From Escherichia phage SholemSchwarzbard: DNA of 64,000 nucleotides. The position numbers and the translations under genes were made by a program. Location: sequence record PP925840.1; one strand, written 5' to 3'. Of the stretch, positions 3,804-4,321 are shown in pieces. Below the pieces are notes generated by a model, which was given only the letters and a program-made list of their open reading frames with translations, was not told the origin of the DNA and did no database searches. Every line of letters starts with the position of its first letter. Within the stretch, counting starts at the first letter, position 1.

Positions 3804-4277
3804 TTATTTGATTTGTTTAGCAGACCAAATGCGGTCTTTAATAATTTTTTGGATGTCTTCAACATACTCAAGAGAGTGAGCATGTGGGTTATCTTTGAAA
3901 CTATAAGCACGAGCTAGTTTTTGGCCTTCAGTTTTGATTACTAAAAGCTCTTTAAGGATAGCTTCATATTTGGAGATAATTCCTTTAACAATATTTTTTT
4001 CTTGTGCAGCTTTAGGATCTGCTTTAGGAGCAGGTTTACCCGAAGCCTTTGCAAAAGCAGCGCCAGTAGCAACTAAACTTTTCCAGGCCATACTAACTGC
4101 ATTTCCCGTAAATCCTTCCGCTTTCATGTCGCGTGCGAACTGGAATCGCGATTCATCAGAAGCATCTTTATAAGAATATTTACCCGCTGCAATGGCTGCT
4201 TTTGCGACAGCTTGAATTTCGGTGCTAGATGCTTCATTTAACACCGCTTCATTTAAAAATTGAGTATATGATTTCAT
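3804..4277 (-). CDS. candidate capsid internal protein (157 aa) with targeting-sequence-like N-terminus
   Basis: N-terminus MKSYTQFLNE|A resembles the T4 internal-protein targeting sequence MKTYQEFIAE; minus-strand TATAAATA late promoter upstream; AGGAAA SD. Confidence 0.6.
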   Translation of the reverse strand: MKSYTQFLNEAVLNEASSTEIQAVAKAAIAAGKYSYKDASDESRFQFARDMKAEGFTGNAVSMAWKSLVATGAAFAKASGKPAPKADPKAAQEKNIVKGIISKYEAILKELLVIKTEGQKLARAYSFKDNPHAHSLEYVEDIQKIIKDRIWSAKQIK

Positions 4278-4313
4278 CTTATTTCCTGTTTTAATTCGTG
4301 GATTTAATATACT

Positions 4314-4321
4314 TATTTATA
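4314..4321 (-). promoter_or_regulatory. late promoter TATAAATA
   Basis: Exact TATAAATA on minus strand, 36 nt upstream of the ATG at 4277. Confidence 0.55.

Follow-up and report, generated by a model that had tools for sequence, protein, structure and literature searches.

A putative late-expressed internal head protein gene between rnaC and e.8 in Escherichia phage SholemSchwarzbard

Introduction

Does Escherichia phage SholemSchwarzbard encode a further internal protein (IP) of the T4 type at a locus separate from its annotated Ip genes? The question is raised by an open reading frame (ORF) at 3804..4277 on the minus strand of a 64,000-nucleotide stretch of sequence record PP925840.1 (hereafter the window), which is part of a Tequatrovirus (T4-like) genome with the gene order of T4 on its minus strand. 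An earlier sequence-only reading had singled out this ORF for an N-terminus, MKSYTQFLNE followed by A, that recalls the capsid targeting sequence (CTS) of packaged proteins, and the ORF is present as described. It starts at ATG, has the N-terminus MKSYTQFLNEAVLNEASS and encodes a precursor of 157 amino acids (aa) with a mass of 17.2 kDa and an isoelectric point (pI) of 9.5. As far as sequence can test them, the protein appears to have all the defining traits of T4-type IPs, and we consider it probable that it is a late-made internal head protein, processed by the prohead protease gp21 and injected, probably as an anti-restriction effector.

Host immunity encounters injected IPs before any other phage factor, and the host range of T-even phages, therapeutic ones included, is shaped by them. 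To our knowledge, every T-even IP with a known target (four) disarms a modification-dependent restriction enzyme. Recognizing the ORF as a probable IP gene adds a third IP locus to consider when host-range differences are explained, and its family amounts to several hundred unannotated candidate injected proteins, almost always labelled ‘hypothetical protein’. The novelty is a probable further IP of T4 type, so far unlabelled, at a separate locus; the kind of protein is already known, the known principle of injected IPs is unchanged, and a specialist would find the assignment plausible rather than surprising.

The Leader Resembles the Capsid Targeting Sequence of T4 Internal Proteins

The leader, or propeptide, comprises codons 1-15 (4233..4277, minus strand) and reads MKSYTQFLNE followed by AVLNE, with candidate gp21 cuts after E10 (4248) and E15 (4233). 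Its first ten residues and the A that follows compare with MKTYQEFIAE followed by A in IPII and IPIII of T4. We scanned every ATG, GTG and TTG in the window that is followed by 40 or more codons (n = 1,086), and a strict CTS pattern matched three of these starts, namely the two annotated Ip genes (7637-7870 and 7949-8206) and ORF 3804-4277. Each start also received a BLOSUM62 score for its match to MKTYQEFIAEA, which joins the IPII/IPIII leader to the first mature residue as taken from T4 itself. The ORF scores 34, equal to the Ip5-like gene at 7949-8206, while the best unrelated start reaches 24, which places the ORF at z = 5.4 relative to the other 1,083 candidate starts. By these measures, the resemblance on which the sequence-only reading was founded exceeds chance.

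The resemblance also falls on positions of mapped function. Suppressor analysis of the IPIII leader (Mullaney and Black), as summarized by Kuhn and Thomas (PMC9026906), assigned targeting mainly to residues 4 and 7 and processing to residues 8 and 10. The corresponding residues are Y4, F7, L8 and E10 in the ORF and Y4, F7, I8 and E10 in IPIII. Comparison with IPII and IPIII by profile had been proposed as a check, and in hhalign the leader of the ORF family aligns with both proteins and nothing beyond it does.

Across the protein family the leader varies in a manner that preserves these positions. Among 12 aligned sequences, the most distant at 24% identity, M1 and F7 never vary and L8 hardly does. 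Two positions beyond the L (or V), each of them has a glutamate, and the next residue is A, G, S, Q or L. The pattern M-x-x-[YF]-x-x-F-[LV] and then the cleavage glutamate is retained even at 24-37% identity; position 4 is Y or F across the family, or K in shortened leaders of the MKFKEF type. Examples, with the site before the last letter, are MKTYNEFLNE/S, MKSYAEFLTE/Q, MKFKEFLAE/A, MLKFNEFLAE/G, MINFSDFLNE/G and MKSFSSFLNE/G. Leader length varies by insertions and deletions, with L-x-E always kept at the end.

Two Candidate Sites for Leader Removal

The leader holds two L-N-E sites followed by A, L8-N-E10/A11 and L13-N-E15/A16, apparently the result of a five-residue duplication (FLNEA, then VLNEA). 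The sequence-only reading had placed the gp21 cut after E10, and that site is indeed there, but the conserved cut more likely follows E15 rather than, or besides, E10, because both the shorter homologues in the family alignment and T4 IPII and IPIII in hhalign align at the second site, which places the conserved cleavage point at E15/A16. Multiple cleavage sites within propeptides are a known trait of these proteases (PMC5694885), and because the leader offers two, the mature protein is predicted to start at A16 and/or A11. The semi-tryptic peptide marking the mature N-terminus would be ASSTEIQAVAK after a cut at E15 or AVLNEASSTEIQAVAK after a cut at E10, and the N-terminal tryptic peptide of an unprocessed precursor would be SYTQFLNEAVLNEASSTEIQAVAK. 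The enzyme expected to remove the leader, gp21, is encoded at 37207..37845 on the plus strand (Pfam Peptidase_S77, E = 1.5e-111), inside the 20-67-68-21-22-23-24 head-gene block of the window.

A Conserved Gene in a Family Annotated as Hypothetical

Is the ORF a gene at all? Over the surrounding 1.8 kb, identity is 97.9% with Shigella phage JK38 and about 93% with RB51 and RB68, and the equivalents of the ORF include RB32ORF132c, RB51ORF140 and RB68_138. Because the ratio of nonsynonymous to synonymous substitution (dN/dS) is 0.08 against the Mosigvirus orthologue, at a dS of about 1.7 (saturated), the sequence comparison indicates a real gene under strong purifying selection; four comparisons, close relatives included, give 0.07-0.13. 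The alternative that it is a chance ORF, or a remnant decaying in a mobile, terminator-flanked insert, could appeal to the truncated or frameshifted alleles of some phages. It is set against these four ratios, one of them at saturated dS, against the 469 phage records that hold at least 80% of the protein (of 511 with the gene by tblastn), and against a good Shine-Dalgarno sequence (AGGA, 4284..4287, minus strand, 6 nt 5′ of the ATG, as read from the sequence), a conserved promoter and a conserved terminator. On dN/dS and conservation, this alternative appears effectively refuted, and we regard it as extremely improbable.

The protein belongs to phrog_2280, a family of ‘unknown function’ (E = 2e-60), with hosts among E. 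coli, Shigella, Yersinia, Klebsiella, Enterobacter, Serratia and Erwinia and members in several hundred sequenced T4-like phages. An exhaustive search of 1.84 billion representative proteins with a profile hidden Markov model returned 13 sequences, and those traced to their source come from T4-like phages. Every record among the matches listed annotates the gene as ‘hypothetical protein’; in JK38, Ip4, Ip10, Ip6 and IpI are named and the orthologue of the ORF is left unnamed. The name RB32ORF132c did not occur in the literature searched by full text. The suggestion that this was an undescribed protein stands as to its annotation. The gene is not unique to SholemSchwarzbard, and belongs to a widespread family at a polymorphic slot. 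Protein-cluster look-ups agree with the records, and no protein of this slot is named Ip, save for one UniRef label, ‘Internal head protein’, on the homologue in Klebsiella phage KPKp. We rejected that label as support, since the paper on the phage describes annotation with BLAST and Artemis only, with no proteomics.

A Terminator-Flanked Cassette with a Putative Late Promoter

The gene lies between two copies of a 36-bp imperfect direct repeat, each of which contains an intrinsic terminator. The upstream copy (4319..4354, minus strand) holds a hairpin at 4351-4328 followed by a T-run, which ends the tRNA/rnaC transcription unit just before the promoter of the gene. The downstream copy (3764..3799, minus strand) differs by one mismatch, in the loop, and its nearly identical hairpin at 3796-3773, with a 10-bp stem of seven GC pairs and a T-run, lies just 3′ of the stop codon and ends the transcript of the gene. 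This confirms the strong downstream terminator that had been proposed; the upstream hairpin is an addition to that description. The annotation of the gene in RB51 likewise describes it as ‘flanked by 34 bp imperfect direct repeat’. A search of 3300-7000 against Rfam returned tRNAs only, rnaC and rnaD not being Rfam families.

The minus-strand late-promoter octamer that had been read at 4314-4321 is also present. The T4-type consensus TATAAATA occupies 4314..4321, 44 nt 5′ of the ATG, and spans the junction of repeat and insert, the repeat supplying TAT and the cassette AAATA. The record of phage vB_EcoM_Lutter annotates this site as a promoter. Overall, the window has 24 copies of TATAAATA where 9.45 +/- 2.74 are expected, a count that none of 100 shuffles reaches.

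Comparison with T4 defines the extent of the insert. Between rnaC and e.8, T4 lacks the gene and has a single copy of the hairpin repeat, directly followed by the sequence that in the window follows the second copy; because of this arrangement, the window can be said to carry a 555-bp cassette relative to T4, bounded by the 36-bp direct repeat. The empty site of T4 looks like the product of recombination between two repeats.

The Slot Is Conserved in Layout and Variable in Content

The same order of elements recurs beyond the closest relatives. We examined ten loci from six genera, those of the window, RB68 and JLBYU22 (two loci) in Tequatrovirus, OLB35 (Mosigvirus), WG01 (Dhakavirus), KpV477 and ValerieMcCarty04 (Jiaodavirus), EnA02 (Karamvirus) and Virsaitis27 (Winklervirus). 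In all ten, at the equivalent position, a terminator hairpin is followed by NATAAATA, which stands 33-48 nt 5′ of the ATG, and then by the leader. The octamer is exactly TATAAATA in seven of them, and the others have AATAAATA, GATAAATA or CATAAATA.

What fills this slot between rnaC and e.8 differs from phage to phage: it is empty in T4 and holds one or two family members elsewhere. JLBYU22 and RB14 carry a second, tandem ORF of 187 aa (JLBYU22_136, equivalent to RB14ncORF136c; 803-1366 of the JLBYU22 stretch examined, minus strand), which has the leader MKTYAEFLTE followed by AAK, its own GATAAATA and its own terminator. It adjoins the orthologue of our gene on the downstream side, is absent from the window and occurs in 165 phage records. 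A hhalign comparison of its C-terminal hairpin with that of the target family gives a weak link (E = 5.7e-5, probability 66%). ValerieMcCarty04 has in the same slot, behind the same terminator and TATAAATA, a 194-aa protein (WKM80661.1; 3202-3786 of the stretch examined, minus strand) with the leader MKFKDFLTE, then EELFE, then A. Neither BLAST nor hhalign relates its body to that of the ORF 3804-4277 protein. Phages of Klebsiella, Enterobacter, Raoultella and Cronobacter make up the 88 records that contain it. PHROGs nevertheless assigns the three proteins to one family, phrog_2280 (E = 1e-53 for JLBYU22_136 and 1e-10 for WKM80661.1).

Loss is recorded as well. The KpV477 homologue (3996-4530, plus strand, of the stretch examined) is broken by an in-frame TAA (AAA to TAA) and annotated as two small ORFs, and several E. 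coli and Shigella phages have truncated alleles of 93-119 aa, which together suggests repeated loss of function. Such accessory, cassette-like behaviour is typical of ip loci, where a conserved regulatory and leader module accompanies diverging cargo (PMC3012670, PMC12373910). By analogy, the slot appears to mirror the ip loci of the literature, with a constant regulatory and leader module and a cargo that diverges. A broader proposal is that the interval from the rnaC terminator to e.8 is a third hypervariable IP locus across at least six Tevenvirinae genera, in which phrog_2280 members serve as injected inhibitors of host defence, with targets unlike those of known Ips and a specificity set by diversification of the N-terminal domain. 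Taken as a whole, that proposal is speculative and we think it rather unlikely to hold in full.

Predicted Structure and Possible Activity

AlphaFold2, run on an alignment of eight sequences, gave a model of moderate confidence (pLDDT 76.7). It predicts a three-helix N-terminal domain at residues 17-75 (4053..4229, minus strand; block pLDDT 80-90; about 18-71 by the model), which holds the best-conserved body motifs of the family (AGKYSYKD, RFQF and AWKS). A Pro/Ala/Lys-rich linker at residues 76-87 (4017..4052, minus strand; modelled with low confidence) leads to a C-terminal helical hairpin at residues 88-154 (3816..4016, minus strand), predicted from the model and the alignments. In homologues from Klebsiella and Yersinia phages, the N-terminal domain is kept and the C-terminal half is different.

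If the protein is packaged, does it act against host defence or inside the head? IPII and IPIII were long assumed to neutralise DNA charge or to assist packaging and ejection, and the protein studied here could likewise be a packaged IP with such a role in the head. Its composition is close to theirs (17% Ala, pI 9.5), its mature form has 24 Lys and Arg residues, and the predicted helical hairpin with its Pro/Lys linker is a generic shape for associating with DNA or scaffold; lysines of IPs contact DNA phosphates in T4 heads (PMC3012670). The failure of Foldseek to find any similarity to known inhibitors also counts in favour of such a role. Set against this, the gene is dispensable for head function, since T4 lacks it and several phages have only a truncated copy, and the interchangeable, fast-diverging members of the slot suggest an arms race rather than a structural role. 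Moreover, the equally basic IPII and IPIII proved to be specific GmrSD inhibitors (PMC12373910). A purely structural role in the head is, on balance, improbable.

The known inhibitors are each specific. IPI (Ip1) inhibits GmrSD of strain CT596 and Ip2 the BREX-embedded GmrSD of ECOR21 (PMC12373910, PMC9391042), while Ip3 specifically inhibits GmrSD of ECOR17 (PMC12373910; PMC9391042). The role of IPIII was tested through the strain-specific plating defect of a deletion, which was rescued by leaderless protein in the host (PMC9391042), and a new IP from the ipI locus of phage Bas37 (Bas37_0260) inhibits McrBC (bioRxiv 10.1101/2025.11.20.689424). Neither sequence nor fold (Foldseek against PDB and BFVD; hhalign against IPII and IPIII) relates the ORF 3804-4277 protein to Ip1-Ip3 or Bas37_0260. 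Because every T-even IP with a known target inhibits such an enzyme, the most likely activity would be inhibition of one variant of a host modification-dependent (type IV) nuclease, an assignment that we offer tentatively.

Evidence Weighing Against an Internal Protein

Several results count against assignment as an injected IP. The literature search found no virion mass spectrometry (MS) for any phage with this subfamily, and the MS list for CsCl-purified ValerieMcCarty04 virions has no peptide row for WKM80661.1, the divergent slot member of that phage. Searches of the protein against Pfam, NCBIfam and PDB sequence profiles gave no function, and Foldseek searches of the moderate-confidence model against PDB and BFVD gave self-matches and generic helical bundles only. 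Within the body, LKE followed by L (residues 108-110) is a further [LI]-x-E site, the only one outside the leader, and depletion of such sites in the mature body was not significant, as was likewise the case for the T4 IPs in this underpowered test. The late promoter is compatible with IP status and does not define it, because the two canonical Ip genes of the window use early-type elements. Finally, the CTS motif is not fully specific, as a look-alike in the window demonstrates.

That look-alike is UvsW.1 (46947-47177, plus strand, PF11637), the N-terminus of which reads MLLEFKQFLYE followed by ASIDEF, a CTS-like spacing one residue out of register. The motif lies outside the Pfam domain (residues 21-74) and was caught by a looser CTS pattern. 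We know of no indication that UvsW.1 is a head protein or is packaged. Its N-terminus is either a chance look-alike that limits the specificity of the motif or a further candidate case. We had also considered this ORF as gp67, which was rejected: Pfam identifies UvsW.1, and gp67 is encoded at 36534-36782.

The ValerieMcCarty04 dataset is neither sensitive nor clean. It strongly detects the IPII-like and Ip4-like proteins, but its sole match to the ipI-locus Ip is spurious, and it includes many peptides of the non-structural protein 57B; it is a weak negative, and for a protein that is related without being orthologous. Peptides of the Klebsiella homologue are likewise absent from its supplement, which is no test of the target since that phage has a different slot member, and the rows searched for ValerieMcCarty03 virions gave no match, in a part that may not reach the region.

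These points bear most directly on the possibility that the product is a late cytoplasmic protein that is never packaged, its CTS resemblance being a family-conserved amphipathic helix with some other role. Packaging is, after all, deduced here from sequence rather than known directly, and because of the ValerieMcCarty04 non-detection and the UvsW.1 look-alike we retain this explanation, while judging it quite improbable. Against it, the resemblance covers exactly the residues mapped for targeting and cleavage (PMC9026906). In every case the leader forms the very N-terminus, with A, G, S, Q or L after its final glutamate; it is the best-conserved part among members with bodies that have diverged past recognition by BLAST, and its insertions and deletions keep the boundary L-x-E, as expected of a removable propeptide. 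A prohead core or scaffold protein of the gp22, gp67 or gp68 type was rejected. Such proteins have several internal gp21 sites and are cut by the protease into small fragments, and their genes are essential and conserved within the head-gene cluster. The protein here has one [LI]-x-E site outside the leader, and its gene is not part of the 20-24 head-gene cluster and is missing from T4.

Proposed Course of Expression, Packaging and Injection

For the reading we prefer, an injected internal head protein, the following course may be proposed. Late in infection, phage-modified RNA polymerase would start at TATAAATA and produce a monocistronic mRNA of about 0.5 kb ending at the 3796-3773 hairpin, while the hairpin at 4351-4328 would shield the gene from early and middle transcription of the tRNA/rnaC unit. 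The N-terminal CTS would then dock the 157-aa precursor onto the scaffolding core of the prohead, as the retained mapped positions suggest. There, gp21 would cut after L-N-E at residue 15 and/or 10 and release a basic (pI ~9.5), all-helical mature protein of 142-147 aa, which would be kept in the head with the DNA. In the next infection, the protein would enter the cell with the DNA and act before phage gene expression.

Comparison with Known Systems

The gene shares much with ipII and ipIII of T4. Its ten-residue leader has the same pattern, ending in [LI]-x-E followed by A, and its product is small, basic, Ala-rich and non-essential, encoded by an accessory gene of patchy distribution among T-even phages. 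In contrast to IPII and IPIII, similarity is confined to the leader. Those genes lie between denV and e, whereas this one lies between rnaC and e.8 and has its own TATAAATA, flanking terminators and a duplicated L-N-E site followed by A. Ip2 and Ip3 also inhibit defined GmrSD variants, whereas packaging and a nuclease target are putative for the ORF 3804-4277 protein.

The closer parallel in organization is the ipI locus, which is polymorphic and holds Ip5, Ip6, Ip7 and others (Repoila et al. 1994, as cited in PMC12373910), Bas37_0260 among them. Both are hypervariable slots in which regulatory elements bracket a cassette; they are empty, single or double depending on the phage, and offer alternative cargo proteins behind a common type of leader. 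The brackets differ, however, the ipI-locus genes of the window having early promoters with stem-loops, and the rnaC-e.8 slot having terminator hairpins and then a late promoter. The cargoes also differ in kinship: those of the rnaC-e.8 slot are remote homologues of one another (phrog_2280), while those of the ipI locus are unrelated.

A third comparison is with the promoter/stem-loop cassettes (PeSLs) of T4-type hyperplastic regions, which Arbiol et al. are said to have described in 2010 and which reportedly contain early promoters. As in these, a short gene stands between repeated regulatory stem-loops, and recombination between such repeats could add or remove it. Unlike PeSLs, the cassette described here has intrinsic terminators as its repeats, and its promoter is of late type and arises where repeat and insert join.

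Other Internal Protein Genes and Neighbouring Features

Followed along the minus strand, with coordinates falling, the window runs through gene 1, 57A, 57B, the Ip genes at 7949-8206 and 7637-7870, tRNA.4, tRNA.3 and tRNA.2, a tRNA cluster split by a segB-like GIY-YIG gene, an ORF at 4663-5010, rnaD/rnaC, ORF 3804-4277 and e.8 to e.2. The tRNA cluster thus lies between the gene and the Ip genes of the ipI locus, a separation that the sequence-only reading had described correctly. Those two genes (7637..8206, minus strand) are an Ip6-like gene at 7637-7870, with the leader MKTYQEFIAE followed by T, and an Ip5-like gene at 7949-8206, with MKTFKEFATE followed by T. They fall in phrog_8111 and phrog_3499, annotated as ‘internal virion/head protein’, and are labelled Ip5 and Ip6 in RB68 and JK38. 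Each is preceded by an early-type promoter, TTTACA-N17-TACTAT, with a stem-loop, and no TATAAATA is found nearby. A nearly identical element of about 60 bp (TTTCACAAAGTTGTTTACA ... GGTAGTGATACTATTACC) precedes each of the two genes (7560-8300, minus strand), and a partial copy precedes tRNA.4; these elements look like the promoter/stem-loop cassettes of T4-type hyperplastic regions.

To call the ORF a ‘third’ internal protein gene is correct for the window, but close relatives have further Ip genes next to denV. In JK38, in a region beyond the left end of the window (1206-2013, minus strand, of the stretch examined), Ip4 (157 aa, MKTYQEFITE followed by A) and Ip10 (MKTYQEFIAE followed by S) adjoin denV where T4 has ipII and ipIII; RB68 has no genes between denV and e. 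Because JK38 is the closest relative, the source phage may encode up to five CTS proteins. Ip4 of JK38 was considered as a counterpart of the ORF 3804-4277 protein and rejected, the two having the same length and unrelated sequences.

Among the remaining genes, the e.6 homologue (2035-2628, minus strand, 197 aa, phrog_1203) is called ‘host specificity protein’ in the records of JLBYU22 and ValerieMcCarty04, a label for which we saw no support. The tRNA cluster at 5029-6623 has ten tRNAs, among them tRNAs for His, Asn and Tyr that are missing from the cluster of T4. The segB-like GIY-YIG ORF that divides it (5846-6379, minus strand) has 177 aa and is shorter than SegB of T4, and TATAAATA octamers occur within and beside the cluster (5727 and 6049).

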